A stretch of 64,000 nt of DNA from a virus (IMGVR_UViG_2838948833_000001:10725-74724), one strand, 5' to 3'; counted from the first letter of the stretch, positions 37,614 through 58,151 are shown. Numbers and translations: made by a program. Notes: generated by a model from the sequence alone, not told the origin.

Positions 37614-37647
37614 AGCAATTTTAATAATAGATTTTTCCTATCGTTAG

Positions 37648-37674: not shown

Positions 37675-37712
37675 ATAAATGAAACTTTGATAAATTTTAT
37701 TTATAGTGATTT

Positions 37713-42322: not shown

Positions 42323-42367
42323 TCCTATTTAAGTATTTAAACTTCAATAGGCTTTTTGTTTTGACAG
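42323..42367 (-). promoter_or_regulatory. terL leader: conserved motif plus hairpin adjacent to the start codon
   Basis: mRNA CUGUCAAAACAAAAAG-CCUAUUGAAGU-UUAAAU-ACUUAAAUAGG-A-AUG. Confidence 0.7.
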
Positions 42368-42727
42368 TTATTTCTTAGTGTGTCTTTTTAAAGGGTTTTT
42401 ATTGGCTGGTGAGGATTTTACTTCATCTTCATTTTCTACAACATCCCAAAACGTAGGATCGTGTAATTCTCTTTCTAATTCATTAATCTTCCCAAGTATT
42501 CCATCTGCTCTATCTAAAGCAGCATCTCGTACACCTAAGAAAGAATACAATTGTTGCTCTGCAGTTTTTATTATATCGCCGTCTTTATCTGTAATATCAG
42601 AGAAAGTGGGAAGTGGTTTAGACACTGCATCAAAAGTATCATCTACTAATTTTTGATACTTCTCAATAAGTGTAGGAATTTCTTTTTTTCGTTTCTCTTG
42701 TAATTTTCCGTTATCCATATTATCCAA
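42368..42727 (-). CDS. Putative terminase small subunit
   Basis: Small helical protein immediately upstream of terL. Confidence 0.55.
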   Translation of the reverse strand: MDNMDNGKLQEKRKKEIPTLIEKYQKLVDDTFDAVSKPLPTFSDITDKDGDIIKTAEQQLYSFLGVRDAALDRADGILGKINELERELHDPTFWDVVENEDEVKSSPANKNPLKRHTKK

Positions 42728-43313
42728 CTTTAGCTAAACAATCTTTCGTTCGAATCCAAGTATATTCTTTGCCATCAATATAAACATCAACTCCGTAGTA
42801 ATCGTTGTAACGAATGGTGTCGCCTTTGATTACTTCATCCCTAAGCAAATCAGCATTTGGAATTTGCACAACGGCAACTCCTTTGATTTCTTTCGGTCTG
42901 GCGATTTCAGTAATAATTAATCCTGATTTATTTTCTTCTCCTGAGTCCATAACCTTAGAAACAATTAGATTTTCTCCAAAACCAATCCATTCGCTTTGAC
43001 TATCTTTTCTAACCGCAATTATCATATTTGCTTGAACTTTAAAAAATCCCTTGTGTCCTGAAATTTCATTGTTCGCTCCTTTACCATGATCATAAAGATT
43101 TTGAAAGTAAATAGTTGGATCAATAAAGGCCTGATAACCTACAATATCCTCGCCCTCATAATTAAGAGGCATTGCTTTAATTTCAACTTCGCGTTGTGCC
43201 AATCGCTTTTGAAGAAAACGATTATCTCCAAAAAGCTCTAAACCACTTTCTGTTTTGAAAGTTTCATTAAAAACAACATCAGTATAAACAATAAAGTCAT
43301 GTAGTGATTTCAT
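42720..43313 (-). CDS. GroES-like (tandem) co-chaperonin homologue
   Basis: Two GroES-like repeats, each with a mobile-loop-like (T/K)(E)SGL motif; GD.I.Y...IDGKEY..IR..D. Confidence 0.7.
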   Translation of the reverse strand: MKSLHDFIVYTDVVFNETFKTESGLELFGDNRFLQKRLAQREVEIKAMPLNYEGEDIVGYQAFIDPTIYFQNLYDHGKGANNEISGHKGFFKVQANMIIAVRKDSQSEWIGFGENLIVSKVMDSGEENKSGLIITEIARPKEIKGVAVVQIPNADLLRDEVIKGDTIRYNDYYGVDVYIDGKEYTWIRTKDCLAKVG

Positions 43314-43335
43314 AGATAAAAACTATTATGAATTG

Positions 43336-43364
43336 ATTCAAAGATAGAAAAAATTTATACAATT
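43336..43364 (-). promoter_or_regulatory. Late promoter, class B (TATCTTTG -7)
   Basis: Near-identical to 51538-51566. Confidence 0.7.
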
Positions 43365-43387
43365 ATTACACATTCGATATGTAATGA

Positions 43388-43822
43388 TTATATAAAAAAT
43401 CTTTTTAAAGACTTCCTAAAGACATATACACCAACTGAAATAATTGCCAAGAGTATAATTATTGGCCACCAACTAAATTGCTTTCGGTCAATATGTTTGT
43501 CTTTTTCTTGACTTTTGTCTTTTTCAGATTGGTCTATATCTGTTTCGGTCTGTTTTGATTTTTCTTCTAGAGTTTCCTTTTTCTGTTCTTTCTTTTCGGT
43601 AGAAGGATTGTAGATTTTCCTTTTTCCTGCTTCTTCAATGATAGAATCAGCTCGAAAGTTTTCAGTGTAGATGTATTCGGAAAGGCTTTTTCGTTCGTTT
43701 TCAAGCTCTTTAATCTTTACAGAAAGATTAGTTTCAATATCATTAATACGCTTGTGTAAATCAACTTTACGCGATCCACAACCAATAACAATAAATGATA
43801 ATAGGACGATTAAATACTTCAT
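43388..43822 (-). CDS. Lipoprotein with C-terminal TM helix (unimolecular spanin-like)
   Basis: Lipobox IVIG-C, coiled coil and C-terminal TM; follows the endolysin. Confidence 0.7.
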   Translation of the reverse strand: MKYLIVLLSFIVIGCGSRKVDLHKRINDIETNLSVKIKELENERKSLSEYIYTENFRADSIIEEAGKRKIYNPSTEKKEQKKETLEEKSKQTETDIDQSEKDKSQEKDKHIDRKQFSWWPIIILLAIISVGVYVFRKSLKRFFI

Positions 43823-43824
43823 AA

Positions 43825-44367
43825 CTATTGATTTTTATCCCATTTAATTAACCAATTCGAAACTATTTCAACCAAACAATCTTCATTTTCGTGAAATGCT
43901 TTCATGTCTCCAAGATTCGTTATAAATCCAAACTCAATCAGAACTGTAATTCCTCCTTTGGATAATATCCCGATTTTACCTCTTGCAGTTTGAGATTCTC
44001 TTCTAACACCTCTATTAGGGATCCCCATTGCTTTAGAACAGTTATCTACTAATTCTTGTGCAGCTATTAAGGTTTCAGAGCTTGCATTGTCATGAACAAA
44101 TACTCCGCATCCTGAAGCTGTTGGCCCTGCTGCATCTAAATGCATATCAAGCAGAACATCTCCTTTTACAGGTCGGATTCTAGATTGATATTGAGTATTA
44201 GTTTCGTGATTTTGGTCAGTAATATATTTGTGACCTAATAGTTCAAGTCTTTTGATAAGTTTATTTCTAAACCTATCCATTTCTTTCATTTCAATAAATC
44301 CATTCGCGACTGCTCCTGGATCATTGTCGTGATGCCCAGCACTAGGGTAAGACATTTCGTTTGCCAT
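43825..44367 (-). CDS. Endolysin, N-acetylmuramoyl-L-alanine amidase (Amidase_3)
   Basis: AGH...DPGAVANG..E, D.H.DA, VLIEFGFITN..D. Confidence 0.92.
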   Translation of the reverse strand: MANEMSYPSAGHHDNDPGAVANGFIEMKEMDRFRNKLIKRLELLGHKYITDQNHETNTQYQSRIRPVKGDVLLDMHLDAAGPTASGCGVFVHDNASSETLIAAQELVDNCSKAMGIPNRGVRRESQTARGKIGILSKGGITVLIEFGFITNLGDMKAFHENEDCLVEIVSNWLIKWDKNQ

Positions 44368-44410
44368 TTCAATTCAGTTTAAGGTGAAAAGGCTTTTTGT
44401 ATTTTGACAG
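44368..44410 (-). promoter_or_regulatory. Endolysin leader: conserved motif plus AUG-sequestering hairpin
   Basis: mRNA CUGUCAAAAUACAAAAA-GCCUUUUCA...UGAAAUGGC; the AUG lies in the 3' arm. Confidence 0.7.
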
Positions 44411-44938
44411 TTATTCTTCTTTATTTTTACTATCGAAGAATGCTTTTAAATCACCATTCTTCTCGAAGTCATAAAGTTTTTTCATTATAAATTCAGGAGG
44501 ATATTTTCCCCTACTTAAAATGTGGATGTTTTTTAAAACTTTAGATGTTGGATATAACAATGTTGTTATTTGAATTAACACCTTAAAAGCTTCTCCTACT
44601 AGATTATCTCCAGCTGTGTATCTTAGCATTTCCAACATTATATAGACTACAGATACTGCTAGTATCATGAAAGCATTTCTAACTAAGAAATCCCACCAAC
44701 TAAAGCTTTTATTTCTCAAATGAAATACTACACCAACCCCCATATTAACAGCTAATGCAATAATCATAAATTGACCAAACTGTTGATTTTCTGTAAACCA
44801 CCAATTTATTTGACTTAAAATAAAGGCGACTGGGGCTAATCTAGTGATTATAGACAGATAGTATTCTAATCTATCCGACCATTTAACGCAGGGCTCTGAC
44901 AGTAATGCAATTCTAGTAAGGATTTGTTGTAGGCTCAT
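44411..44938 (-). CDS. Holin
   Basis: Several TM segments, S..KN...L...K.PP motif; upstream of the endolysin. Confidence 0.75.
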   Translation of the reverse strand: MSLQQILTRIALLSEPCVKWSDRLEYYLSIITRLAPVAFILSQINWWFTENQQFGQFMIIALAVNMGVGVVFHLRNKSFSWWDFLVRNAFMILAVSVVYIMLEMLRYTAGDNLVGEAFKVLIQITTLLYPTSKVLKNIHILSRGKYPPEFIMKKLYDFEKNGDLKAFFDSKNKEE

Positions 44939-45231
44939 TACTCCATGTTTTGAAATTCTCCAGTCATTGGATTGATATTTACCCTTCCATATGTTTGTGT
45001 TAACTCATTGATCAGCTTTTGTCTTTCAAAAATAACTTCTGAATTGGAACCATCTAAAACACTTTTCGCTTGTTTAAGTTCAAACTCACGTTGATATAAT
45101 TCAGCAGCTTGCTGATTAATTTGTTCAAACTTCTGATTCGATTCTTGAAGTTTTGCTAAATGCAAGGAAGAAATCTTGTTTACTTTTTCTTCAACTGATT
45201 GCTCTACTGGTGTTTGTTTTTCTTTGTTCAT
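44938..45231 (-). CDS. Coiled-coil hypothetical protein (possible fibre chaperone)
   Basis: Ends L...YG.VNI...TGE. Confidence 0.65.
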   Translation of the reverse strand: MNKEKQTPVEQSVEEKVNKISSLHLAKLQESNQKFEQINQQAAELYQREFELKQAKSVLDGSNSEVIFERQKLINELTQTYGRVNINPMTGEFQNME

Positions 45232-45239
45232 TTTATTAT

Positions 45240-46127
45240 TTAAATTAAAGGTTGTTTTCTGAAAATTCCTGACCTAGCTTCTCCAATGTAAATCTCCAAT
45301 ACTGGTAAATCGTCAATGTTCATTAGGCCATAATCAATTGTTATTTTGTTTTGTCTAAAAGCTTCAAATGATAGTTTTTGATCTGGTTGTATTAAGTTTT
45401 CAAAATATCGAATGCAGTTAGTGCCTGTAATACTTTGAATGTGAATTTTAGCAGGATATTCACCACTTAAAAATGTCTCGAAAAAATCAATAACCTCTTG
45501 ACTATTTGTTGTTAGTGTTGAATTGTTCACACTATAATTCAAAGCATTTGCAAGGTCTTGGTGATTGATGTATTGCGTTCGTTCTAGGTTGAAAATATCT
45601 AGTTGGGCGAGGATATTAAAATTCAAAACTATATGTCCTATAGGTCCATAGTCTGTCGCTTCTGCATACATGTAATAGAATCGCTGCCTTGTATCTTCTG
45701 TAAATAAAACACCGTCATCAGACCATAATAAATCAACGTATCCCAAACGTGTTTCATATTGCCCAGCTCCACCACCATAACTAAACCCAATTTGGTTGTT
45801 TTCAAGATTTTCTCTTTTAATTACATCACCAACAATCAGGTTGAAATTAGGATGAGAAGCATAATCACTACTTCTAACATTCATATTGTTTATTTCGGCA
45901 ATTTTCAGGGCCTTAAATTCTCTCCCTTGATTTGGTTTATAAGGAGGGAAAGTGTCCGTAGTTACATCATTCAAAGTAAGGTTATACCCTTTAGAGACAT
46001 CATTTACAATACTAGTTAATTGGTTATCGTGGCTAATATCCTTATCCGCCCAAGTGATAACATTGCTGCCGGTTCTTATACTTGAACTAGATGTATTTCT
46101 AACTGCTATCAATTTCAATTCTGCCAT
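45240..46127 (-). CDS. Tail-associated structural protein
   Basis: Start MAELKLIA parallels MSELKIVA of the upstream gene. Confidence 0.65.
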   Translation of the reverse strand: MAELKLIAVRNTSSSSIRTGSNVITWADKDISHDNQLTSIVNDVSKGYNLTLNDVTTDTFPPYKPNQGREFKALKIAEINNMNVRSSDYASHPNFNLIVGDVIKRENLENNQIGFSYGGGAGQYETRLGYVDLLWSDDGVLFTEDTRQRFYYMYAEATDYGPIGHIVLNFNILAQLDIFNLERTQYINHQDLANALNYSVNNSTLTTNSQEVIDFFETFLSGEYPAKIHIQSITGTNCIRYFENLIQPDQKLSFEAFRQNKITIDYGLMNIDDLPVLEIYIGEARSGIFRKQPLI

Positions 46128-46128
46128 A

Positions 46129-46923
46129 TTATAAACCTGAATATTGACCACTTCCGACATCAGCGACATCGAATGTGATAGTTGTTGCAATTCCTTCTGC
46201 TGTACCTGGAGGATAGAAAGCTTTTAATTCTCCTGTTTCTAAATTCGTTGCGAAAAACTCTTGATTATTTTGAATTCTAACTCCATTGTATGTAATGATA
46301 GCTGGACCTACAATGCGAGGTGTTATTACTTTCAATGGCGCATCACCTTCAGGATCTCCATAAGGTGGTGTTGTATCCACAGTAAATACATTTATGTTTA
46401 AGGGGACGAGCATACCAATCGGGCATTCTATGGTGTTATTTCCGATTGAATTTGGTGGTAGATTTGTTCCTGATACAACATCGATAAACAACTTGGCAGA
46501 TTCGTTAATGTAATCTGAAGTAATATTTTCTACACTGTTAAATGCAGATGCTGTGTATTCTACGTAATCACTTCCAATGGCATTACCTTTTACTTTGAAA
46601 AGGTTTCCATCTAAAGTGGTTTTGCTGATTTCTCCATTTTGCACTGAGTTACTCACATAACGAATAACTTGACCATTATTGGTCAATGTTGCTATTGTTG
46701 CTGTACCAGATGGACGCAAAATGTTATCCACATTTATTCCTGGTCCAAGTACTTTAATTCCCGCAATAGGCCGACCAAATTCATGGCGATAACTTGGAGT
46801 AGAATTCGATAATTCTACTCTCGTTATATTGACTGTTTGCCCAACTACAACACGTATTCTAACGTCTCCAATTCGTTCAGGAGGTATATTCGAATTTGTT
46901 GCAACTATTTTAAGTTCTGACAT
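46129..46923 (-). CDS. Tail-associated protein with two Ig-like repeats
   Basis: PP..IG...I.......I.......T.P.Y repeated twice. Confidence 0.65.
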   Translation of the reverse strand: MSELKIVATNSNIPPERIGDVRIRVVVGQTVNITRVELSNSTPSYRHEFGRPIAGIKVLGPGINVDNILRPSGTATIATLTNNGQVIRYVSNSVQNGEISKTTLDGNLFKVKGNAIGSDYVEYTASAFNSVENITSDYINESAKLFIDVVSGTNLPPNSIGNNTIECPIGMLVPLNINVFTVDTTPPYGDPEGDAPLKVITPRIVGPAIITYNGVRIQNNQEFFATNLETGELKAFYPPGTAEGIATTITFDVADVGSGQYSGL

Positions 46924-46933
46924 AATTTACCTT

Positions 46934-49873
46934 TTAAAACATCCAAGGATTGAAATAAGCAACTCTCTCGTTGACAGAATAACCAAATACTCGGTTTACG
47001 CTACTTGTTGCATTATGGGCCATTAAAGCACCTTTATTAAACGTATGGAATATCTTTCCGTTGTTTATTTCATAAACTAAAGCTTCTAATTCTTTAGATA
47101 TATGTCCAGAATAATATCCTTTAAGTAATATTGATTTCATATCACCTAGTAAAATACCTAATACTGCTGTATTTCCAACATTTAGCTGTTCTGAGTTAGA
47201 AGTATCATTCCATTTTCGCCACTGACCGTCGTTACCTAAATAAACAACAGTAGGTTCAGATACATTTAATATTTTTTGACTGCTTAATATCTCTCCAGAA
47301 CCTGAACCGTAGTCAGAATTACTTAATTGTCCATGAGCTTTTTCTTCATTAAACACACTTATTCCAGAACCATATTTGGAAACCCAATCTTCAGAACCTG
47401 TTCCAGAACCACCACCACTAATATTTTCTTGAATAAATTTCCAATTCGGAATATCCATGTCGCCAAATGAATGTTGTGTTTTATATGATTGAACATTCGA
47501 AAATTCTCCTTTACCGTCTGAAAACATCTCATACGCATTGCTACGTATAGAAGCTGACTTTCCATTTCCAATGATAAATAGTGGCGAATAATTATTGATT
47601 GTATTAGTTGTAGTGCTTAAAATAGGATCGTTATAACGTCCAGTTACAGTGCATCCGCGTTGGTTGTTTTGTAAAAAAGGACCTATTACGACTCCTTCCA
47701 TTGCTGTATTTACAGAATATGGGCCTAAAGCTAAACCATACGTACCAGTATTAGCACTAAGCTCCCCAATAGCTAAACCAGAATTCCCATCTGAATTAGC
47801 AGCTGTACCAATGCCTATTGCGTTGTATTTTGTTGCTCCACTACCTCTACCAATTGCAATTGCTCCATCACGAGTAGCAAGTGAATCATAATTTCTAATT
47901 CTTAAACCTCCTTGTGGTGTATGCTCCCAAATAGAATCAGCTCCTTGGGCTATTTTTAATACAACATAATCGGATATTACTTTAGCTGTGACTGTTCTAC
48001 TAACTGTAGCAGTACCTGTATTTAAATCTGCTAATGTAATCGCAGGATATGTAGTGTTTGTCGCTGATATTACATTATTTGCACTGATTTGAATATTGGT
48101 ACCAGCTGTTAAGGTTTGAGTAGAAAAACCTTGAGCGGCTACCCAATCTCTATCGGCAAACATTTTCCAAGAGTTCTCAGTATTTTCCCCATCAAAAGTT
48201 TTGTACCATAGTAAATCTTGACCTGATGCTTTATGTATATGAAAACCAGTTTGATTTGTATTATTAGATACTCGTTCCCAACGTATACCACCACCTACTG
48301 TACCATAAGGATACCCTATGTTACCTGCTAATGTTCTATATGCTAATAATCCTGTATCTTTCAATCGAGAAGTAGAATCTTGATAATCTCTTAAAGCTAA
48401 TGAATCTAGTCTTATATTATTACCATCACTGATACTAATACTCCCCATAGAATTACCTAAAGTTAATGTTTGAATTTGGTTAGGTAAATTACCTGTATGA
48501 TATACTTCTTTCCAATTTGTATAACCACCGTTATGTTTAGTTCTTATAGCTAATCTCCCGCCATCATTAGTATTATGGCCAATTTCATAATGCATTTGTA
48601 ATGCCATATTGGAAGATGTACCTTGAAAATGTATTAATCCACCATAACCAAAAAAAGCTCCATTAGTTAACCAACCGCCTGTACCATAAGAAGCAACCAT
48701 ACCACCTGTTTTGTCATTAAACCAAGTATTTGCATCCGCACTAGTACCACCAACTGCTCTTGATGATAAATTATCAAAGTTCCAAAATTTACTTTTTGCC
48801 CAATTATTTAAAACTTTCGCATTCCATAATTGATTAACTGTTGATGTTCCTTCGTTAATTATTAAATCGTTACCTGCAGTATAGGTTGTGTCTGTTGTAA
48901 CATATCCTTGGTCGTTTTGAAGTTGTGAAAGTTTTGTTAGATTTCTACTATGCCAAATTCTATTCCATGTAGAACCATTAGTATCATTATTAACTCTAAA
49001 ATACATTTCATTACCATCTAGAGTATTGTATATTTGACTAATGTAATTTATACTACCTGATTGAAAATATCTCTGAGATAAAAAACCACCTTGGTTAGTT
49101 GGTTTATTTGTCGACCCTGAGTGAACGTATGCCTCATATGAACCGATTAGATTATCATTTAAATTATGCGAACTTGATGATAAACTTAGTGTTGCTTTTG
49201 GGTTATATACTAGATATAATCCCGCGTGATCTCCTCTGTCATAAGCTTGTTTCCATTGACTTGAATCACCGTGGATTGAACTTCTAATGAAACCATCTCC
49301 AGAAAATACTGTTTGGTTATCTGTAATTTGACAACCTAATGGTCTTATAACAACTCCTACAGTTGATGAAGAACCTAAAGAATTATTTGCTAATATAGTT
49401 CCATGTTGTCCTTTAGATAAGAAAGTAACACCACTGTTGTTAATCATCTGAGTAGCAGTTGAGAAGTCTAATACTCCAGACATTGTATCTCCAATCTTCT
49501 TTACAAATGTATTATCATCTGTAAAGACAACACTAGCATTTGCAAGATCCGATTTTAGTATATATCTAAATCCTGGAGTTCCATTCATTGAAACGGGAGC
49601 CATGAATACTGTGCCTTGTAATTGGTTTTTTAAAGACACAACCAAACTGCGATTGTTATAATCTAAGCTTTCAGTATTCAGGTTAAATATAGACGGAAAT
49701 GCGATTGATAAGCCAGGGATATATGACTCCTTACTTGCTGTACTAATTGTACCAAGTTCACGTTTAAATAAATTGCCATCAGTTTGTACAATAGCAGAAA
49801 GACTACTATTTGAAATTGGCAAATTCTCAATAGTAGCTGTACCTTCTATTACTACATTATCGCCTATTTTCAT
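46934..49873 (-). CDS. Tail fibre / receptor-binding protein with YadA-head-like repeats
   Basis: W....H..N repeats; 14-residue AIG repeats; LFIIGNG.....RSNA. Confidence 0.8.
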   Translation of the reverse strand: MKIGDNVVIEGTATIENLPISNSSLSAIVQTDGNLFKRELGTISTASKESYIPGLSIAFPSIFNLNTESLDYNNRSLVVSLKNQLQGTVFMAPVSMNGTPGFRYILKSDLANASVVFTDDNTFVKKIGDTMSGVLDFSTATQMINNSGVTFLSKGQHGTILANNSLGSSSTVGVVIRPLGCQITDNQTVFSGDGFIRSSIHGDSSQWKQAYDRGDHAGLYLVYNPKATLSLSSSSHNLNDNLIGSYEAYVHSGSTNKPTNQGGFLSQRYFQSGSINYISQIYNTLDGNEMYFRVNNDTNGSTWNRIWHSRNLTKLSQLQNDQGYVTTDTTYTAGNDLIINEGTSTVNQLWNAKVLNNWAKSKFWNFDNLSSRAVGGTSADANTWFNDKTGGMVASYGTGGWLTNGAFFGYGGLIHFQGTSSNMALQMHYEIGHNTNDGGRLAIRTKHNGGYTNWKEVYHTGNLPNQIQTLTLGNSMGSISISDGNNIRLDSLALRDYQDSTSRLKDTGLLAYRTLAGNIGYPYGTVGGGIRWERVSNNTNQTGFHIHKASGQDLLWYKTFDGENTENSWKMFADRDWVAAQGFSTQTLTAGTNIQISANNVISATNTTYPAITLADLNTGTATVSRTVTAKVISDYVVLKIAQGADSIWEHTPQGGLRIRNYDSLATRDGAIAIGRGSGATKYNAIGIGTAANSDGNSGLAIGELSANTGTYGLALGPYSVNTAMEGVVIGPFLQNNQRGCTVTGRYNDPILSTTTNTINNYSPLFIIGNGKSASIRSNAYEMFSDGKGEFSNVQSYKTQHSFGDMDIPNWKFIQENISGGGSGTGSEDWVSKYGSGISVFNEEKAHGQLSNSDYGSGSGEILSSQKILNVSEPTVVYLGNDGQWRKWNDTSNSEQLNVGNTAVLGILLGDMKSILLKGYYSGHISKELEALVYEINNGKIFHTFNKGALMAHNATSSVNRVFGYSVNERVAYFNPWMF

Positions 49874-49876
49874 CTA

Positions 49877-51079
49877 TTAACCTTTTGGAATGATTACTAC
49901 CTTAACTTTATTTAAACCTGGAGGTCTTCCAAATGATACCAAAATTTGAGTATTACTAATAATTTGATAATCTACTAAGTATTTTATTTTAGCAGGCATT
50001 TCAAAAAAATCTGCAATTAAATCTTCTGTATTAAGTCCGTGTTCAATTGTAAACTTGTTATTTGTTGTGTCTCCAAAAACAACAACATATCCCTTATTTG
50101 CAGAAGCATCTACAACCGCTTTCACCTTTTCAGGCGTCATCATTGTAGTATTATCTTCACCTGCCAAAGCCTCTGCTGTAGTTGAAATCCTAGCAATACC
50201 TGTACGTGTTTCAGTAGCAGTTCTTGCAGATAATCCAGCAGGAGTAATTGCCTTATTGTTATTATTTCCTGCTTGAACTTCTGCATTTGTTGCAAGCATA
50301 ACCATACCAAGAATGGTAGTTGTTGCTTGATCTGCATTAGTTTGCAAGAAGATATAATCATTCGCGTTAGTATTGCTTGGATTGTCTTTGTTGGCTACGA
50401 TTACATCACCAACTTGAAAAGGCACACCTTGAATAGAACCTGCTACCGTTACATACCAAAAATCAGCTTTCTTAGTATTTGCTCCACCTGGGAAATTTGT
50501 ATTTGTAGCAGCATCATAACCGCCTATCAATTTACCTAATCCAGCAATTGAAGCATCAACATAAGCCTTTACAGCCCCACTTGTTACAAGTGAAGTTCCA
50601 TTGGCACCTGATAAGTCATTTGCATTTATAATTGGAATAGCAGAAGATACCCCAGTTCCTGTAGCAGCTCGTCCAATTACAGTCATTGTTGGAATATCAT
50701 TTATCTTCGCAAATGTGACATTCTTGTCTGTAATTTTAACCGTGGTTACAGCGCTATTAGCCAATTTAGCAGTCGTAACACCTAAGTCTTTAAGTCTAAC
50801 AACACCACCACCGATTTCGATACCTGCATTATCTAAATTTAGGTTGATTGTTGCTACACCATCAGCTTGAGCAACATTGATACCTCCGTCTGTGTTTTCT
50901 ACTTTGTCTAGTGTGCCTAGTTTTACCCATTTGGTTCCCTCCCAATACTTAACTGCTTTTTCAGTAGTATTGTAATATATTTGGCTCTCAACAGGATTAG
51001 CTGGTGGTTGAGGGCGAGGATCTAGCGGCACATTAATTATTGCATGCTGATCTAAATTTAATACGTCTCCTATTCTCAT
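49877..51079 (-). CDS. Tail fibre protein
   Basis: VTTAKLAN.AVT repeats; AT....G...LAT.AE.......ITP repeats; HGL.T. Confidence 0.8.
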   Translation of the reverse strand: MRIGDVLNLDQHAIINVPLDPRPQPPANPVESQIYYNTTEKAVKYWEGTKWVKLGTLDKVENTDGGINVAQADGVATINLNLDNAGIEIGGGVVRLKDLGVTTAKLANSAVTTVKITDKNVTFAKINDIPTMTVIGRAATGTGVSSAIPIINANDLSGANGTSLVTSGAVKAYVDASIAGLGKLIGGYDAATNTNFPGGANTKKADFWYVTVAGSIQGVPFQVGDVIVANKDNPSNTNANDYIFLQTNADQATTTILGMVMLATNAEVQAGNNNNKAITPAGLSARTATETRTGIARISTTAEALAGEDNTTMMTPEKVKAVVDASANKGYVVVFGDTTNNKFTIEHGLNTEDLIADFFEMPAKIKYLVDYQIISNTQILVSFGRPPGLNKVKVVIIPKG

Positions 51080-51081
51080 TC

Positions 51082-51513
51082 TTACTTGATTAATACAATT
51101 CCAGTTTGAGGCCTTCCGAACTTGACAATTATTGTATTTAAATCTTCTTCGTAATGTATAGTGGTTAAAACTTTTTCTGTTCCAATGATAGGGATTGCTT
51201 CTACGTATCGACCAAGGTTATGAGGTATAACTACCTCTGAAAGATTGCTAAACTGATACGTCTTTCCTCCTACGTCTTTTACTGTAGCGAACTTATCAAC
51301 TCCATTTTCTCCATCATTAATCAAATCAGAAGTTTTCTTTGGCACTTCAAAGTCAATTTCAACTTCTTGCTTAATTACTTCTGATAAACTCTTGACAGAA
51401 AAGGTCTTGGTTTGAAGAACTTTTTTATTAGCAGCATCAGTACCAATAAGATAGTCCTCAATCGTTACATTGTAATCCTCTGGGTAAACATCCTTATTAC
51501 TAATCTTTGCCAT
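51082..51513 (-). CDS. Tail-associated protein
   Basis: MAKIS...Y......D.LIGTD; KTSDLINDG; HNLG. Confidence 0.7.
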   Translation of the reverse strand: MAKISNKDVYPEDYNVTIEDYLIGTDAANKKVLQTKTFSVKSLSEVIKQEVEIDFEVPKKTSDLINDGENGVDKFATVKDVGGKTYQFSNLSEVVIPHNLGRYVEAIPIIGTEKVLTTIHYEEDLNTIIVKFGRPQTGIVLIK

Positions 51514-51537
51514 TATAAATAAAATCTATCGTAATCA

Positions 51538-51578
51538 ATTCAAAGATAGAAAAAAATTATACAATTGTCATATATTTG
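51538..51578. promoter_or_regulatory. Divergent promoters: late class B (-) and TATATTTG (+) for the adjacent regulator
   Basis: CAAAGATA at 51541-51548 and TATATTTG at 51571-51578. Confidence 0.7.
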
Positions 51579-51614
51579 TTACGTAATGATTACACAAAAC
51601 AGAAAAAAAACACC

Positions 51615-52193
51615 ATGAGCAAGAGAATAGAATTGATGATCAAACTTCCTCCATTGGCTAAAAAAAGAATGGAAAACGACAAAACGAAAATTGTTGAGGC
51701 ATTTTTTAAAGGGAATGAAGCAGAAGCCTATACGAAATTACAATTCGCTAGGATATACAAAGGGTATGATTTACTTGAGGACTTTGGATATGTTCGACAT
51801 GCTATTCAAAGAAAGTACGATATCAGCGTAACGCTACTTGAAACTATCTTATACTTGGTTCCGAAAAACTACTTCATGGTGGATGACCTAAGAGAAATTA
51901 CTCAAATTCGCTACACCTATAAAAAAGTTGATACTTTAATCCGATTGGGGTATGTAACTCGCGCAGCTAAGGGAGGAAATAAAAATGAACACCTTTATAC
52001 AGCAACAGCCAAAGCACGTCAAATTTGCCAAGAAATGCACGAAATGTTAGCAGGGGAGATTCCTATTCCAGAAGAACTTTATAACACAAAAGAAGCTTCT
52101 AAAAGCGATTTAATAAAGGCTGAAATCATTAAAAAATTAAATAAAAAAGAAAAGCCCAAAACAGTGAAATTGCTTTGGGCTAGGAAAGCTTAA
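51615..52193 (+). CDS. Winged-helix (MarR-like) DNA-binding protein, candidate late regulator
   Basis: LE.ILYL...L......V..L...GYV.R.......Y..T.KAR pattern; divergent from the late operon. Confidence 0.55.
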   Translation: MSKRIELMIKLPPLAKKRMENDKTKIVEAFFKGNEAEAYTKLQFARIYKGYDLLEDFGYVRHAIQRKYDISVTLLETILYLVPKNYFMVDDLREITQIRYTYKKVDTLIRLGYVTRAAKGGNKNEHLYTATAKARQICQEMHEMLAGEIPIPEELYNTKEASKSDLIKAEIIKKLNKKEKPKTVKLLWARKA

Positions 52194-52773
52194 TAGTGTA
52201 TTCTACTGGCTTCATAAGACAATGAAATTTATCATTAATAACTAACTCTTGTCTATAGTTTTCATTGTTTTTATCCTTGAAATAAAAAACAATTTTACCT
52301 AATTTATTTTTTGACACCAAATTTCTTGATTTTATATCTGATAACTCAAAATCAATAGAGTGCCTAGTACTAAATAAAGTATGATCTATTTCGATTTCTA
52401 TTAAAATAGTTGTTCCTACATTAACAATAGTGTTTTCATATATTAGATTAGAAATTATTCTATAATCATTATGTAAATCAGTATCAAACTTGAAGTCTAT
52501 TAGCAAATTATCTTCTACTTCTAGTTTTATTTCAGTTCGATAAACATTTCTAAAATTATTTGACATCATACCTGAAAAGTCAACTAACTTTAAAAAAGGT
52601 TTATTGTTATCTCTGAATTTTTTAATCTCAAGATTTGTTATCTTCTGCTGCTCAACTAATGTTTTATTTTGAGCCTTTAAAGTTCTCCATAAAAATACAA
52701 TAGATACTATTGCGCCTAAGCTACTTATTGCTTGAATCCAATTAGGAACTATTTTCCAATCAATTTCACACAT
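52180..52773 (-). CDS. Membrane-anchored hypothetical protein (low GC)
   Basis: N-terminal TM followed by coiled coil and P.L motif. Confidence 0.65.
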   Translation of the reverse strand: MCEIDWKIVPNWIQAISSLGAIVSIVFLWRTLKAQNKTLVEQQKITNLEIKKFRDNNKPFLKLVDFSGMMSNNFRNVYRTEIKLEVEDNLLIDFKFDTDLHNDYRIISNLIYENTIVNVGTTILIEIEIDHTLFSTRHSIDFELSDIKSRNLVSKNKLGKIVFYFKDKNNENYRQELVINDKFHCLMKPVEYTIKLS

Positions 52774-52782
52774 AGGATAAAA

Positions 52783-53061
52783 TTATGAAGACACTGTGTT
52801 GATTACTGCTTCTTCTGGTGTTCTACCTATTTCATTCAAAAATAAACAATGAACACCACCTATATTAGTAGTCATCTGAACAGCTACTGATACTTGAAAA
52901 GGTTTGTCATCTCTATAACTAATTCCTTCTAATATACATTTTCTTACTTTATTATTTCCAAAACAAACATAATACGTTTCCCCAATAACTAAATCAAAAG
53001 TTTTTCTTAAACTAATATGTATAGGTTTTACATCTTTACTAACTTTAATTATTTTATGCAT
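52783..53061 (-). CDS. Hypothetical protein
   Basis: 92-aa ORF; EIG.TPEEAV.N motif. Confidence 0.6.
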   Translation of the reverse strand: MHKIIKVSKDVKPIHISLRKTFDLVIGETYYVCFGNNKVRKCILEGISYRDDKPFQVSVAVQMTTNIGGVHCLFLNEIGRTPEEAVINTVSS

Positions 53062-53240
53062 GTTATATATTTTTATACACGCAAGATAATCAAAAATAAT
53101 AAAAGGTAAATCTAATTTGAATTAGTGTAAAAGTTAGGTTATTCTATTCCATTTTGAATAATCTAACTTATTAAAAAAATATTTATCTTTGATATGTAGT
53201 TACTGGTTTTCCATAAATAAGATAAGTTGCTAAAAATCAG

Positions 53241-53280
53241 TAAAAAAAAAGCACCAGACTTCGAAATATGGTGCTTAAAA
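53241..53280. terminator. Bidirectional terminator
   Basis: A-run, then AAGCACCA...TGGTGCTT hairpin. Confidence 0.7.
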
Positions 53281-53544
53281 TTCCAATATAAATGGAGAAG
53301 TTTTTATTATTATTAACTGTCGTGCTCAAGGAGCATGGGCAGAAAGGAACATTAGTGCCGTTCCTCTTAGGTTTTAGTTTTGCACTTCTTGTTGTTGTAT
53401 ATATGTTTATCAAAACACTATAAAAAACAACTATTTAAAAGTCAGTAGTTAGAGCTGCTGGCTTTTATCCTTCCATGTGTTTACAAAAGTACAAACTTTT
53501 TTGTAAATTATCAAATTTTATAATTTGATAATTTTTAATTTTTT

Positions 53545-53799
53545 TTACAAAACAAACTCAACATCATCTTTTTCTCTCAAAACAAGATGTTCAATACCAT
53601 CAATTACCATTTGTAATCCATCCGAATATTTAAACTTTCGTACGCAATCACCTGATTTAATATACTTCACTTTTACGCCAACTTCAACTACTTTGTATTC
53701 ATTTTCGCTTTGGTAGTTTGTAGGTAAGATTAAGCCACTTTCTGTTTGCTTTTCTTCTACTATGCGAGTGCATAAAATTCTATCTCCTAATAGCTGCAT
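53545..53799 (-). CDS. groES: Co-chaperonin GroES homologue
   Basis: LGDRIL....EE..TESGLILP...VVEVG......GD.V....G....IDG...LVLRE.D. Confidence 0.9.
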   Translation of the reverse strand: MQLLGDRILCTRIVEEKQTESGLILPTNYQSENEYKVVEVGVKVKYIKSGDCVRKFKYSDGLQMVIDGIEHLVLREKDDVEFVL

Positions 53800-53802
53800 A
53801 GT

Positions 53803-54870
53803 TTACTTTTTAATATTTATTAATCTAATAGTCATCTCGTTTACATCTACCTCTAAAATAGAATCATTTGCTTTGATATCATATTCAATCGAAAGTCTTT
53901 TTAAAATTCTATTAAATAAGTATTTTTGAGAATAACCTTTATCAAAATCTTCATCAATAATATATTCAAGTCCTACATTAGTATATCCTCTTTTATGATA
54001 ATAAACATCTTCAATTCGATGTTTAGGAACAACTCTAATAAATCCTCTAGTAAATAGAGTTTGGACAGCATGATTGACTAAACGAGAGGTCCTACCCGTT
54101 CTACGTTTGGTATGTTTTGTATCTGTATCCACATTCAAAAAGTAAAAGAGGTCTTTAGTCCATTTAGCATCTGACAAAGCGTTGTGGCAATTAATCTCTT
54201 TTGGATATCCACCATATTTTTTCAAATCAATTGGAGTCATTTTTTGAATTTCCTCCTTAATTTGATTCACATCTATTGTATACATAGGAAAACCCTTTGG
54301 TAAGTCTTTCATTAGACCAAACAACCAACAAAAAACAACATGATCATAAGCCGAGTAATAGCCATATAGTTCTGGCTTTGTAATCGAACCTAAAAAACCA
54401 ATTATCTCACCAGCTATCTGCTTATTTGATTTGCCGTATTTATCCAATAGTTTTCTAAACCACTTCTTGTTTTTTGACCAAGTTTCATGCGATTTAAAAA
54501 CCTCAAGAGTAACTTCTTTTCCTTTATAAAGCCATTCATCTTTAAAATGGATATCGTGGAACTCGCGCATAGCTAACTCAAAGAAAATAGGCATTAGTAC
54601 GTTTTCTCGAATCCAATATACTTTTGTTATTATACCCTCTGGAAAATAGTTTCTCATATCTCCATAAGTAGGTACTAGCTTTTCATCATACCTGTTCCAA
54701 GCCTCATCTAGATTAAAATCTTTAGAAATAGCATAATACTCTCGGTTATCTTCTGAAACAATTCCAATTGAAATTAAATCGATGGTCGGTTTTGTTTTGC
54801 CAATAGGAAAACCTAAGAAACGTTTCGTTTGTGGGCCTTCTAAAAATTCGGTGTCATAAAAATATTTCAT
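53803..54870 (-). CDS. DEDDh 3'-5' exonuclease (Rv2179c-like) with C-terminal extension
   Basis: YFYDTEF.E, DLISIG.V.ED.REYYA, YYSAYDHV, HNAL.DA.W. Confidence 0.88.
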   Translation of the reverse strand: MKYFYDTEFLEGPQTKRFLGFPIGKTKPTIDLISIGIVSEDNREYYAISKDFNLDEAWNRYDEKLVPTYGDMRNYFPEGIITKVYWIRENVLMPIFFELAMREFHDIHFKDEWLYKGKEVTLEVFKSHETWSKNKKWFRKLLDKYGKSNKQIAGEIIGFLGSITKPELYGYYSAYDHVVFCWLFGLMKDLPKGFPMYTIDVNQIKEEIQKMTPIDLKKYGGYPKEINCHNALSDAKWTKDLFYFLNVDTDTKHTKRRTGRTSRLVNHAVQTLFTRGFIRVVPKHRIEDVYYHKRGYTNVGLEYIIDEDFDKGYSQKYLFNRILKRLSIEYDIKANDSILEVDVNEMTIRLINIKK

Positions 54871-55067
54871 ACAATTATATTTTTTTCTGCTGTTATTTCG
54901 TAATCATGGTATATATCGTATTTCTCTCCTTGTTTAATTCCATACATCACCTCTTTATTTCCTACAATGATATACGCAACTAATCGAGGTAATTGGTCAG
55001 GATCTGTTCTTAAATAAACAGTTTGCTTTATCTCAAATTCTATTTCAGTGACTATCGTTTTTGACAT
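54867..55067 (-). CDS. Hypothetical protein
   Basis: VYL.TDPDQ.PR.V motif. Confidence 0.7.
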   Translation of the reverse strand: MSKTIVTEIEFEIKQTVYLRTDPDQLPRLVAYIIVGNKEVMYGIKQGEKYDIYHDYEITAEKNIIV

Positions 55068-55078
55068 AGCAGTATATT

Positions 55079-55276
55079 TTACTTAACAATCTGCGCAAAC
55101 TCGCCTTGTTTCCAAAAGCAAATAATACCAGAAGGACTTGTTACTGTATCTTCATCCGGATTATACTGCAATCGAGGAACGTTGGTTACGTTTACTTCTT
55201 TGCCCAATTTCAAACAGTGAATTGCTTTGGCTTTAGCAAAGTGTTTTTCTATTTTCTTTAAATCTTTCTCGTTCAT
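55079..55276 (-). CDS. Hypothetical protein
   Basis: 65-aa ORF in the operon. Confidence 0.6.
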   Translation of the reverse strand: MNEKDLKKIEKHFAKAKAIHCLKLGKEVNVTNVPRLQYNPDEDTVTSPSGIICFWKQGEFAQIVK

Positions 55277-55340
55277 AACATTTCAAAATAAAAAAGCTGG
55301 CTTACGAGAAACCAGCCTTTAACAACACAACTAATTTTTT

Positions 55341-55613
55341 TTAATCGATGATAATCCAATCTTCTGATAGAATATCACTTCCACTCGGAACCCACATAGC
55401 ATGATCGCCTTGAGCAGTTCTCAATTGAAAATAAGGTCTGACTTTAAATAAATCACCTTCTTTCAATCCCCAAGCTTCAGCAGTTTGCTTATTACATGGA
55501 ATGCCATCAGGATAACCTTTTTGCAAAACAGCAAACATTCCTTGTCCGTTCCATCCTTCTCTTGATACTTTCTTACCTTGTTTTAATGCTTCTAAAGCTT
55601 TTCCAAAATTCAT
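55341..55613 (-). CDS. DUF2829 family protein (Thoeris anti-defence Tad2-like)
   Basis: MNFG.ALEALK.GKKV.R.GWNG.GMF...W.PS..D.L.EDW. Confidence 0.88.
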   Translation of the reverse strand: MNFGKALEALKQGKKVSREGWNGQGMFAVLQKGYPDGIPCNKQTAEAWGLKEGDLFKVRPYFQLRTAQGDHAMWVPSGSDILSEDWIIID

Positions 55614-55620
55614 AGCAATT

Positions 55621-55797
55621 TTATTTAGGGTTATTTTTAATTCGCTCAATTATCGTATTGTATTCTTGAATCCATTCAGTAGGAACAGCCATTTCTGATT
55701 TGCGGTAACGAACAATAGCTTCTACTATTTCGGTTAGACGTTCGTTGTCCAATTCATTCTGCGTTCTTATTCCATAAGGAGGGGCTTGCTCTAACAT
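55621..55797 (-). CDS. Small hypothetical protein (58 aa, MLEQAPPYGI...)
   Basis: Read from sequence; fills the gap between rusA and DUF2829. Confidence 0.65.
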   Translation of the reverse strand: MLEQAPPYGIRTQNELDNERLTEIVEAIVRYRKSEMAVPTEWIQEYNTIIERIKNNPK

Positions 55798-55799
55798 AC

Positions 55800-56120
55800 C
55801 TACTCGATTTTAAATTTCACATACTCTTCGCCTTTCTTTACAAGGACCTTTGAAACAGTTCCTCTGTAAATATCCCGATCATCAATACCGTACTTCTTGC
55901 ATAGTATATCTTGAAAAGGCTTTATAGGATTATCCCAATCAGAAAGTTTACTTGAAACTCCAAACTCAAAAGTGATTGAAAAAGGAGGGTTGGGTATTTC
56001 AATTCGCTTAGGCAACATCAGCAAAACCGCTTTTTCGTACTCTTTGTACCCTGTAGTCTTGAAGCGTTTGCCTTGCCACGCAGAATTTACCGAAAGGGGT
56101 TTGATATTAACTGTTATCAC
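55800..56120 (-). CDS. rusA: RusA-like Holliday junction resolvase
   Basis: PLSVN.AW, D.DNP.K...D.L...GIDD..I. Confidence 0.85.
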   Translation of the reverse strand: MITVNIKPLSVNSAWQGKRFKTTGYKEYEKAVLLMLPKRIEIPNPPFSITFEFGVSSKLSDWDNPIKPFQDILCKKYGIDDRDIYRGTVSKVLVKKGEEYVKFKIE

Positions 56121-56302
56121 TATTCAACCTTTTTACCTAATCCATCGGAATACACCCCCTCTTGATAGGCTTGTACACTCCAACCTTTACTTTTACTAAT
56201 CGATTTCATTTTTTCATATTCGGCAAGTGTCATTTTCTTTCTCATTACAACCTCAACAATAGTATTATCGGGAAGCAATGTTGTCTTGATTTGTTTCGCC
56301 AT
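56120..56302 (-). CDS. Hypothetical protein
   Basis: 60-aa coupled ORF. Confidence 0.6.
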   Translation of the reverse strand: MAKQIKTTLLPDNTIVEVVMRKKMTLAEYEKMKSISKSKGWSVQAYQEGVYSDGLGKKVE

Positions 56303-56381
56303 GATTCAATGATTTAAAAAAAGTATGGGGACTTTTTATAGTGCAGCGTTAAAGCATATTTCAGAATAACGGGACACTTTG

Positions 56382-56484
56382 CTAAGTAGTCAGGACTCGA
56401 ACCTGAACGTATTATATTCTGAATACCGCTATAATAAGCTATAATACCTCGGATAGTGCGTCTAACCAATTCCGCCACTACTTA
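56382..56484 (-). ncRNA. tRNA-Leu-like RNA with intact acceptor, D and T arms but a distorted anticodon arm (pseudo-tRNA)
   Basis: TAAGTAG/CTACTTA acceptor, TGGCGGAATTGGTTAGACGC D arm, TCAGG-TTCGAGT-CCTGA T arm; 103 nt. Confidence 0.7.
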
Positions 56485-56543
56485 CCATTACTTTTTACAG
56501 AAGCAACAAACTGGTTATTAACCAAAACCTATAATATGAATTG

Positions 56544-56617
56544 CAGTCTATACGAGATTCGAACTCGCGACCTCTTGCGTGACAAGCAAGCACTCTAGCC
56601 AACTGAGCTAATAGACT
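56544..56617 (-). tRNA. tRNA-Asp(GTC)
   Basis: AGTCTAT/ATAGACT acceptor, CTTGC-TTGTCAC-GCAAG anticodon arm, TTCGAAT T loop, G discriminator; no encoded CCA. Confidence 0.95.
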
Positions 56618-56732
56618 AAAAAAATGAAGTGTTTGTTTAAGAAAAAAAAGCCTTTCCTAAGAACGTCAATAAAGCAGATGAATACTTAATGATCAGAAAG
56701 GCTTTTTTAAAGGTTTGTTGTTTATTTAAAAG

Positions 56733-57041
56733 CTAGGTAATCCTAATTTTATCGCGAATGCAAATATCGACCTTGGATGCCGATGTGCCCAAATTTAGCG
56801 ATTTAGAGTAAGTATAAATATGTTTTTTATCAGGAAATATCCTGGGGACTAAAACATATTGCCTACCTACATAAGCTTTTAAATCCGCAGAAGCGAAAAC
56901 CGCATCCACTTTTACTACATCAGAAAAAGAAACAAGCTCTACTTTCTGTTTTGAATTTTCGCTCAGGTCTATTGTAGTCTTACAGATTCCCGCAATACTG
57001 AAGCATAACAGCATTGTAAAAAGCATAAACAAACGTTTCAT
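56733..57041 (-). CDS. Secreted hypothetical protein between tRNAs
   Basis: Start MKRLFMLFTMLLCFSIAG (signal peptide) a few nt after tRNA-Trp. Confidence 0.55.
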   Translation of the reverse strand: MKRLFMLFTMLLCFSIAGICKTTIDLSENSKQKVELVSFSDVVKVDAVFASADLKAYVGRQYVLVPRIFPDKKHIYTYSKSLNLGTSASKVDICIRDKIRIT

Positions 57042-57047
57042 AGTTTG

Positions 57048-57118
57048 CACGCAAGAAAGGATTCGAACCTCTGCAAACAGTTTTGGAGACTGTTGTGCTA
57101 CCACTACACCACATGCGC
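57048..57118 (-). tRNA. tRNA-Trp(CCA)
   Basis: ACAGT-CTCCAAA-ACTGT anticodon arm, AGAGG-TTCGAAT-CCTTT T arm, acceptor with one mismatch. Confidence 0.92.
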
Positions 57119-57125
57119 TTAAATA

Positions 57126-57250
57126 AAACCACTTGCCAGCCGTGCAATAAGGATGTCAAAAAGCCTCTTCAAAGCACCCTTGAATCTGCTATTACGATTC
57201 CACGTTGGTCTGTCATTACCTCAGCTAATCTAGTTAGCGACAAGTAGTTT
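57126..57250 (-). ncRNA. Putative structured small RNA abutting the 5' end of tRNA-Trp
   Basis: 12-bp closing stem AAACTACTTGTC/GGCAAGTGGTTT, internal hairpins, raised GC, no ORF; complementary to the terL and endolysin leaders. Confidence 0.65.
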
Positions 57251-57287
57251 AATTTTTATATACACAAATGCCAAAAATGTCAATGAT

Positions 57288-57593: not shown

Positions 57594-58151
57594 AATTTCA
57601 TTTTTGATACATGACAAATATATAAAACATTTTACACAATTACATAACAATCATATAAATTATTTTACACAAAAAATTACATGATTACATAAAATAGATT
57701 TTGAACTAAAGACAAACAAAAGAAAAGGCCGTTTTTAAGCCTTGAAATTATCAAAATGAGTATTCGGTTATTTGAAAGAAGAAAACCTCTTAGAAGTAAA
57801 GAAAAGGAGGTTAAATATTAAAATTGAGATATGGTAGTGTGTTTGGGATGGTATACATGTTTCAGAACGAACGGACCGCAAAAGGAAAACGCGATTAAAA
57901 AGGGTATTGGGGGTAGATTTGCATTTCAACTCAAAAACATTTTAGCTTTTTATATCCATGCATCCAAAGCTAATTTTAAGCAGCAACTAATTTCAACATT
58001 ATGTTTCTAGCTTTATCGATTATCCAGGATCTAAACTGCTGCAAAAGAAAACTGTAATCCTAGTATGATTCGAATCAAACAACTCAAACAACTGTAAAAC
58101 AACGCCTTAAGATTTCATTATTTAAAAGTTGCACAACCATTGCACAACTAC

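Follow-up and report, generated by a model that had tools for sequence, protein, structure and literature searches.

The stretch of DNA analysed here, hereafter the window, is 64 kb long (IMGVR_UViG_2838948833_000001:10725-74724) and corresponds to G000:C1:781095-845094, inside a 4.3-Mb single-contig genome of a Flavobacteriaceae-type bacterium. It carries a prophage whose closest relatives are found in Myroides and Flavobacterium records, the nearest named phages being Cellulophaga phages (Pachyviridae). The minus strand carries the genes between ~17 kb and 58 kb, and this block includes portal, large terminase (terL), GroES-like co-chaperonin, Amidase_3 endolysin and holin genes, as well as genes for tail-fibre-like, virion structural, RNase H-like and RusA-like proteins. 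We describe a structured small RNA encoded beside a tRNA gene at one end of the block, and a two-part box, complementary to two loops of this RNA, that precedes several late genes. All elements of this system lie on the minus strand, and the RNA probably controls translation of the tail-fibre, endolysin and terminase genes. The features concerned are the following.

57119..57250, minus strand: structured small RNA of ~130 nucleotides (nt) comprising six helices, P1-P6, with a match to the covariance model R1 over 57250..57117.
57210..57217, minus strand: P3 hairpin loop AAUGACAG, complementary to half-box 1, CUGUCA.
57156..57174, minus strand: P6 hairpin loop CUUUGAAGAGGCUUUUUGA, complementary to half-box 2, CAAAAAGCCU, and beyond.
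57047..57118, minus strand: tRNA-Trp (CCA), found by ARAGORN and Rfam, beginning ~8 nt past the terminal stem of the RNA.
57255..57283, minus strand: candidate promoter of the RNA, TTGACA-17 nt-TATAAA, as read from the sequence.
44368..44410, minus strand: endolysin leader, with box 1 CUGUCA at 44410..44405 and box 2 CAAAAAGCCUUUUCA at 44399..44385.
44393..44363, minus strand: endolysin hairpin GCCuUUUCA/UGAAAuGGC, with the AUG (44367) inside.
43825..44367, minus strand: endolysin, an N-acetylmuramoyl-L-alanine amidase (Pfam Amidase_3, PHROG 435).
44411-44938, minus strand: holin (PHROG 14914), directly upstream of the endolysin.
42323..42367, minus strand: terL leader, with box 1 CUGUCA at 42367..42362 and box 2 CAAAAAGCCU at 42358..42349.
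42351..42324, minus strand: terL hairpin CCUAUUgAAGU/ACUUaAAUAGG, stopping 1 nt short of the AUG (42322).
40097..42322, minus strand: terminase large subunit gene (PHROG 6681, E 1e-251).
51104..51128, minus strand: tail-fibre site UUGUCA-N8-GGAAGGCCUCAAAC, 49 nt before the AUG (51079) of a tail-fibre-like gene of 400 amino acids (aa).
36615..36635, minus strand: weak fourth site UUGUCA-N8-GAAAAGCCA, 65 nt before the AUG (36570) of a 449-aa virion structural protein (PHROG 13704).

The RNA is predicted to fold into a 12-bp terminal stem, P1, which encloses hairpins P2 and P3 and a stem P4 bearing hairpins P5 and P6 (minimum free energy, MFE, -36.5 kcal/mol, z -2.4 for 57255..57119). Homologues were found by DNA search in the records of four TerL relatives (G401, G402, G403 and G404), and a covariance model built from these four and the window added G406 (99.5 bits) and G405 (74.5 bits), for a set of seven. 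Pairs were counted on a six-member alignment, in which 98.1% of cells are paired and both sides have changed in 17 of 36 pairs, a count equalled in none of 500 shuffles; when partners were slid by 1-3 columns as a control, at most 5 such pairs were left. This alignment was fitted to the covariance model. In an independent MAFFT alignment, RNAalifold found compensatory changes in 10 of 40 pairs. The RNA is a real conserved structure.

No known family accounts for it. In the window only tRNA reaches the Rfam gathering score, and at E values up to 10 the sole Rfam match overlapping the RNA in 56400-57700 is an 18-bit hit to the DUF2693 RNA (threshold 81.3). The RNA itself is not called as a tRNA by ARAGORN or RF00005, which report only 57047-57118 and 56543-56617 in the window. 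It is single-copy in its own genome, and when 400 other genomes of the family were searched at the DNA level, only short, chance-like matches turned up (best E 2.4e-4 over 30 nt). A host housekeeping RNA, such as the signal recognition particle RNA or 6S RNA, was ruled out by these same three results. Likewise, the TerL search of 400 family genomes returned the prophage's own genome only, pattern scans of viral contigs returned three known records plus three contigs that fail the covariance model, and a metagenome pattern scan returned 69 loci, none convincing by the model (best E 0.2 and 0.49).

Two of the loops concern us most. The P3 loop has a mean unpaired probability of 0.86 in the window and 0.82-0.99 across the 7 homologues; the corresponding values for the P6 loop are 0.45 and 0.45-0.72. 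The P6 stem covaries, and the core of its loop, GGCUUUUUG, is unchanged in 5 of the 6 box-matching homologues (window, G401, G402, G403, G404 and G406, which represent 4 distinct types and are close kin) and reads GGCUAUUUU in G406. In the window, the RNA holds UUUGAAGAGGCUUUUUGACA at 57173..57154 and UGACAG at 57215..57210.

The intergenic leaders of terL and the endolysin both begin right after the upstream TAA (CTGTCAAAACAAAAAGCC and CTGTCAAAATACAAAAAGCC, respectively). They share the motif CUGUCA-N3-5-CAAAAAGCC, which has 2 matches in the window and 0 in 100 shuffles. Both strands of the window together hold three copies of CAAAAAGCC: one in each leader, and one opposite the RNA loop. A preliminary description of this DNA had pointed out the leader motif after the UAA, the two hairpins and the sequence in the RNA region; all are present on the minus strand, and its view of a conserved, structured, tRNA-linked RNA with exposed loops complementary to a bipartite leader box was borne out. 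The terL leader is conserved in 6 relatives. Compared with shuffled sequences, both leaders have the more stable folds (z about -2.5 and -2.4), and their hairpins are without covariation support. The boxes stand in an A-rich single-stranded stretch, the toehold being unpaired in MFE folds. As for the other two sites, that of the tail-fibre-like gene overlaps the 3' end of the upstream open reading frame (ORF), and the fourth lies inside the upstream ORF, at a position kept in 5 genomes (window, G401, G402, G403 and G407).

The leader belongs to a place in the genome rather than to one gene. The lysis slot holds an Amidase_3 endolysin in the window, G402 and G404, and a GH108 plus PG_binding_3 endolysin in G401 and G403; a box-bearing leader precedes both of these unrelated types, both of which start with AUGGCA (L023:7927-8481 and L062:6810-7364 compared with 43825-44367 of the window), so that the element is attached to the lysis slot. 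Two other identities were considered and rejected: an ordinary promoter, since canonical TTG...TAtcTTTG promoters recur elsewhere, and terminators, since no sense-strand U-run stands behind the leader hairpins and a terminator scan lists none there. On the antisense strand the hairpins are terminator-like, yet no genes run in that direction. Between the endolysin and terL, at 42720-43313 (minus strand), lies the gene of the GroES-like co-chaperonin (Cpn10 domain, PHROG 13932), as it does in Cellulophaga phages.

The P6 loop can pair with the endolysin leader over 15 consecutive bp, one of them G.U, and with the terL leader over 10 bp plus an interrupted extension, which reproduces the pairings first proposed; across sites, contiguous runs are of 8-15 bp. 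They also enter the 5' arm of the leader hairpin, as had been noticed, for box 2 ends in GCC(U/A), with which this arm begins. We then quantified specificity by summing loop-restricted duplex energies for P3 and P6 over all 42,638 windows of 45 nt, on both strands. The RNA's own antisense aside, the best site was the endolysin leader (-28.7, for a scan mean of -10.3 and a standard deviation of 2.9), followed by the terL leader and an antisense-strand intragenic site, both at -24.5, and by the tail-fibre site (-23.0), third among sense-strand sites. When the 3,713 starts of ATG-initiated ORFs of at least 100 aa in the whole host genome were ranked, the endolysin came first and terL second, as expected of these two leaders beforehand, and the tail-fibre-like gene fourth. 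The fourth site ranks only 235 of 3,713, pairs over 8-9 bp and is uncertain. The target set initially proposed, terL and endolysin, thus stands, but it is larger than two, with the addition of the tail-fibre-like gene and, weakly, the virion structural protein.

When the loops were shuffled with their composition preserved, an energy as good as the observed one was reached at most once in 2000 trials for every one of 11 pairs formed by a leader and its own RNA, from six genomes; among them was G406, which had no part in the discovery. Once the cost of opening both partners is included, net energies range from -9.9 to -16.7 kcal/mol in 11/11 pairs.

Sequence changes between genomes bear on the same pairing. 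The first nucleotide of box 1 and the last loop nucleotide of P3 form C:G in 6/6 intergenic leaders of the window, G404 and G403 (loop UGACAG), and U:A in 5/5 leaders of G401, G402 and G406 (box UUGUCA, loop UGACAA); this position is paired, Watson-Crick or G.U, at 19/19 sites. G406 has AAAUAGCC as box 2 and GGCUAUUU in the P6 loop, and the 8-mer is found exactly twice on both strands of the 21.5-kb contig, at those two places. The third position is the nucleotide after GCC: at the tail-fibre site it forms U:A in the window, C:G in G401 and G402, and A:U in G403, and at the endolysin site A:U in G403 versus U:A in the window. It is paired at 17 of the 19 sites, the exceptions being the fourth site of the window and terL of G403. 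Conservation and covariation of seed and leader motif in relatives had been set beforehand as a test of the proposal, and these three covarying positions are what it yielded. The CUGUCA box had been given two possible partners, of which the second UGACAG, i.e. the P3 loop (UGACAG or UGACAA), is conserved, and the UUUUGACA seed tail (UGACA behind the P6 U-run) is missing in G406 and G403, leaving P3 as the conserved partner. Finally, G407 has variant boxes, UAGUCA and UAUAAAGCC, on a contig that ends before the expected position of the RNA; from these boxes, UGACUA would be expected in the P3 loop and GGCUUUAUA in the P6 loop.

Support for pairing comes from the ranking, the shuffles and the covariation, and we consider pairing between RNA and leaders likely. 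The idea that the leader box is some other signal (a protein site, an RNA processing or late control element), and that its complementarity to the loops has no regulatory meaning, draws on the shortness and A/U-richness of the core and on the post hoc way in which the match was found by the preliminary description. The 9-mer complement of P6 is unremarkable alone, because it has 59 copies in the genome, and the strict pattern CTGTCA-N0-12-(9-mer complement) has 3, two of which are the leaders, so that it occurs once elsewhere, versus ~1.5 expected. Boxes that start exactly at stop codons would also suit a coupling or processing signal. This explanation is nevertheless improbable in our view: it does not account for loops and boxes that covary at three positions, nor for the joint loss of box and matching loops in G405 (see below), and canonical TTG...TAtcTTTG promoters are found elsewhere, before the genes at 51513, 43313, 37613 and 27124. 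A single binding protein would not see the same site in the RNA, where the half-sites are ~40 nt apart and in separate hairpin loops.

The distribution of box and RNA among relatives was also examined. G408, G409 and G411 have no covariance model match (whole-genome searches scored 150 of ~330 candidates) and no terL leader box, and their terL is coupled to the upstream ORF by TAAATG. The Cellulophaga phages phi46:3 and phi19:3 are without the RNA, and the phi46:3 endolysin leader is without the box. In G401 and G402, the segment equivalent to 32582-51612 of the window, with its head, packaging, lysis and tail-fibre genes, has the reverse orientation with respect to the flanking DNA (G402 15893-36152; G401 9850-29086), an arrangement not shared by G406, which is colinear with the window. 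In the two inverted genomes, the RNA and its targets therefore sit on different strands, at a distance of 16-18 kb, and any action must be in trans. We found no inverted repeats at the junctions of this ~19-kb inversion, which speaks against the idea of an invertible segment, and the plus-strand ORF 51576-52193 at one junction matches no Pfam family and no recombinase family. In G404, a Myroides odoratus record, the 98%-identical terL match ends after residue 107, the open frame being of 107 aa (L066:10001-10321); this prophage may be broken or interrupted, though the RNA and both leaders are kept.

The RNA is closely linked to a tRNA. ARAGORN calls one within ~10 nt downstream in 5 of the 7 homologues (Trp in four, Leu-UAG in one), and in G401 and G405 a tRNA-like sequence takes this place, which contains a long insertion and goes uncalled by ARAGORN (G405 L171:1501-1760; G401 L071). 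RNase P cleavage at the 5' end of the tRNA probably sets the 3' end of the RNA, which would be a discrete molecule. On the 5' side, the candidate promoter block is conserved in 5 genomes; a consensus scan omits it, since under its rule the second hexamer must have T as its sixth nucleotide. Directly upstream of the RNA there is no TAnnTTTG box of the canonical Bacteroidetes type. The nearest one, TATATTTG at ~57618..57611, precedes the upstream ORF, so that the RNA may be cut from a longer transcript. Contigs 100% identical to the window are present in RNA libraries from four metatranscriptome runs of one study, for which strand, ends, levels and cell state are not given and DNA is not excluded: in three runs they extend over 57039-57312, in the fourth over 56720-57112, and late genes are covered only patchily. 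Uncovered parts and contig ends near 57258-57312 are no evidence on transcript ends.

A 102-aa ORF with a lipoprotein-like signal peptide (56733-57041, minus strand) starts 6 nt past tRNA-Trp and is covered by contigs in 4/4 runs; behind it, a hairpin with a U-run is found near 56700-56640. The RNA, tRNA-Trp and this ORF may form a unit expressed in the lysogen.

What pairing would do is suggested by the geometry of the leaders. The 3' arm of each hairpin coincides with the start region (endolysin, AAAUGGC; terL, AAUAGG-A-AUG; fourth site, AUGGCUUUU, at long range). In the endolysin leader, the three nucleotides of the AUG have unpaired probabilities of 0.15, 1.0 and 0.0, which become 0.88, 0.97 and 0.31 when the boxes are masked, and the mean over positions -18 to +12 rises from 0.54 to 0.73. 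We propose the following scheme. The prophage would make the ~130-nt RNA, its 3' end being freed when RNase P matures the following tRNA. The P3 loop would pair with CUGUCA and the P6 loop with CAAAAAGCC(U), these two half-boxes having a 3-5-nt spacer in the intergenic leaders of terL and the endolysin; the start codons of the endolysin, terL and tail-fibre-like cistrons follow the two-part box at 40-49 nt. Because box 2 is the 5' arm of a hairpin whose 3' arm lies in the start-codon region (AUGGC; AUAGG-A-AUG), pairing should release the start region and translation would be switched on, as in anti-antisense activation. The P6 loop (GGCUUUUU) resembles the start region, with which it could compete.

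If pairing occurs, activation seems to us a rather probable outcome, because masking frees the endolysin AUG and because relatives without the box couple terL to the upstream ORF; an inserted, self-closing spacer before terL would need an opener. As a whole, a tRNA-linked RNA that acts in trans on these boxes and switches late-gene translation on is our best explanation, which we hold tentatively, at not quite even chances. Somewhat more doubtful, though possible, is the full extension of it, in which one RNA derived from a tRNA precursor is a master key whose two loops fit a two-part lock before the tail-fibre, endolysin and terminase genes, perhaps also that of a major virion protein, and frees their start codons upon binding.

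Several observations weigh against activation by this RNA. In terL the AUG is largely free of pairing from the outset, and the start region hardly responds to masking of the boxes (0.49 to 0.48-0.53). Beyond the 9-10-bp core, pairing is unconserved, reaching 15 bp in the window, 12 in G404 and 10 in G401 and G402; the long pairing initially put forward is thus real in the window but specific to this genome, only the core and a 6-7-bp P3 contact being conserved. When leaders and RNAs were crossed, the own RNA was best for both leaders of the window and of G404, for the endolysin leader of G403 and for the terL leader of G406, but not for the four leaders of G401 and G402 or for G403 terL, which pair equally well or better with a window-type RNA. 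RNAcofold, given the full RNA and each leader, yielded free energy differences of -0.1 to -1.8 kcal/mol and no loop contacts; as this program cannot place intermolecular pairs in hairpin loops, its result says nothing either way, and the loop-restricted duplex energies with opening costs were used in its place. Since the genomes are few (6 box-matching, of 4 types) and closely related, independent covariation events number about 3-4. The contigs, from a single study and with the limits given above, may include DNA carry-over, and if they reflect lysogens, an activator that is always present would gate nothing. Lastly, G405 keeps the scaffold with a P3 loop AACUAUAA and a P6 loop AUUUCAUA, so that the scaffold can exist without the box-matching loops and may serve another function.

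The contigs bring in a rival in which the same pairing has the opposite sign. The RNA would be a repressor or immunity factor like P1 C4 and P4 CI, made in the lysogen with the tRNA and the lipoprotein gene; it would cover the A-rich ribosome-loading stretch, or trigger cleavage or termination, and prevent synthesis of tail fibre, endolysin and terminase by the lysogen or by a relative that superinfects it; the loop and box types would be immunity specificities. The pairing, ranking and covariation evidence applies equally to it, and coverage of the RNA in three runs and of the tRNA and lipoprotein stretch in the fourth, with patchy late genes, is in its favour. In Bacteroidetes, which make no use of Shine-Dalgarno sequences, A-rich single-stranded stretches serve ribosome loading, and the boxes lie in such an unstructured stretch, a possible landing site for ribosomes. 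To our knowledge, the known loop-based phage RNAs are repressors, and the distinct loop and box types resemble the heteroimmunity of P1 and P7, in which loop sequences differ between related phages. These are further points against activation. We nonetheless hold repression to be unlikely: the boxes are at -45 to -27 from the AUG, farther away than a ribosome normally covers; there would be little point in hairpins linking box 2 to the start codon if translation were ON by default; and contigs devoid of strand, level and cell state, with possible DNA carry-over, do not tell what is expressed in a lysogen.

The G405 homologue introduces another explanation, in which the main role of the RNA lies elsewhere, as a tRNA-precursor element, a protein-binding RNA or a decoy, exerted through the invariant scaffold and the tRNA, the variable loops being incidental. 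The G405 scaffold scores 74.5 bits with unrelated P3 and P6 loops, no bipartite complement of which was found within 80 kb; no box-like motif is present at its locus, and its terL start overlaps the upstream stop (TAAATG). Moreover, parts of the scaffold are invariant (CCAACGUGG, the UAAUAGCA loop and CACGGCUGGC), unpaired junction and P5-loop sequences are conserved beyond the need of a mere platform, and a tRNA or tRNA-like sequence always stands behind the RNA. In T4, tRNA-linked stable RNAs (species 1 and 2) of unknown function are a precedent. That the RNA serves chiefly in this way is very unlikely in our opinion, as it leaves unexplained the late-gene leaders at ranks 1, 2 and 4 and the covariation between loops and boxes, and the P5-loop complement is not enriched (5 sites versus 3.5 expected). 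A scaffold role and a pairing role could coexist.

Among known systems, the P1 C4 and P4 CI RNAs are some of the closest to the switch proposed here: they are processed phage RNAs, matured in connection with RNase P, which recognise two boxes by two loops. The likeness to C4 is one of mechanism only, and comprises a phage-encoded, trans-acting structured RNA, two loops facing two boxes (covarying in our case), RNase P-linked maturation, to judge here from the abutting tRNA, and loops that differ between related phages. The RNA is not a member of the C4 family, since the Rfam family model does not match. It also differs in its candidate targets, three to four late cistrons of other operons at distances of 13-21 kb, or of 6-15 kb for the best of them, which in G401 and G402 sit on the other strand, whereas C4 targets an antirepressor in its own operon; in its host phylum, Bacteroidota, in which, as far as we know, little has been described of riboregulation; and in its sign, which may be activation.

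Activation by anti-antisense pairing is known for DsrA, RprA and ArcZ on rpoS and for RNAIII on hla. The likeness would be in a leader hairpin that holds the start region and an RNA that pairs with its 5' arm and with the upstream single-stranded stretch. The differences are the bipartite recognition by loops, the use of one RNA for several phage late genes, and the sequestration of the start codon instead of a Shine-Dalgarno sequence; activation is only proposed here. Synthetic toehold switches likewise combine an unpaired 5' toehold and an AUG hairpin with a trigger complementary to toehold and 5' arm. In our case the stem is entered by 9 nt only in the endolysin leader of the window, and by 3-5 nt in other leaders and relatives, the trigger is a folded RNA with two loops, and the hairpin loop contains no ribosome-binding site. 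In the OxyS-fhlA pair, two hairpin loops of a small RNA also contact two short sites on one mRNA, but OxyS comes from the host and represses its target, whose ribosome-binding site is covered by one of the two contacts. The T4 species 1 and 2 RNAs and the E. coli 3'ETS-leuZ sponge are, as here, small RNAs beside a tRNA and probably released by tRNA-processing enzymes; the present RNA differs from them by its position 5' of the tRNA, its own covarying six-helix fold and its candidate mRNA targets.

Phage late-gene control is classically transcriptional, through antiterminators, late activators or sigma factors. In a full-text literature search, the accessible portions of the papers described no such element in Flavobacteriaceae or other Bacteroidota phages, and no phage small RNA aimed at a terminase. 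IsrK, which acts on orf45/anrP, is another activating RNA of the anti-antisense kind, according to the part of the text available in PMC12197685. In the available portions of that review, the words terminase, tRNA and Bacteroid- are absent, and the sole endolysin case is a cis-antisense RNA. An RNA acting in trans, at translation, on several late cistrons would, if real, constitute a layer of control not described there for any phage group (PMC12197685, in its accessible part).

If one RNA does unlock all these cistrons, assembly, packaging and lysis proteins would be made only when it is present, and loop and lock sequences would have diverged together into specificity types. Among natural toehold-like activators, it would then be the first with multiple phage late genes as targets, and among trans-acting phage riboregulators the first to be described in Bacteroidota. 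With a start codon kept closed by an anti-start box upstream of it, one would have a clean model for translation switching in this phylum, in a small system that makes direct predictions for compensatory mutants, and matched loop and box variants could serve as orthogonal natural RNA switches.

Two other features of the late region were noted. Promoter-like blocks with TATCTTTG, distinct from the leader box, precede four late operons (upstream of 51513, 43313, 37613 and 27124, minus strand), some of them flanked by inverted copies of AATAGATTTT/AAAATCTATT. In an ORF-poor unit of ~225 nt (53245-53477, minus strand), a canonical promoter box, TACTTTTG (53491..53484), is combined with a strong hairpin terminator that includes a U-run. 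The unit matches no Rfam family and may be another small RNA of the prophage; contigs at 53263-53467 are the deepest of the stretch examined in 2 of the 4 RNA-library runs (23.7 and 58.6).

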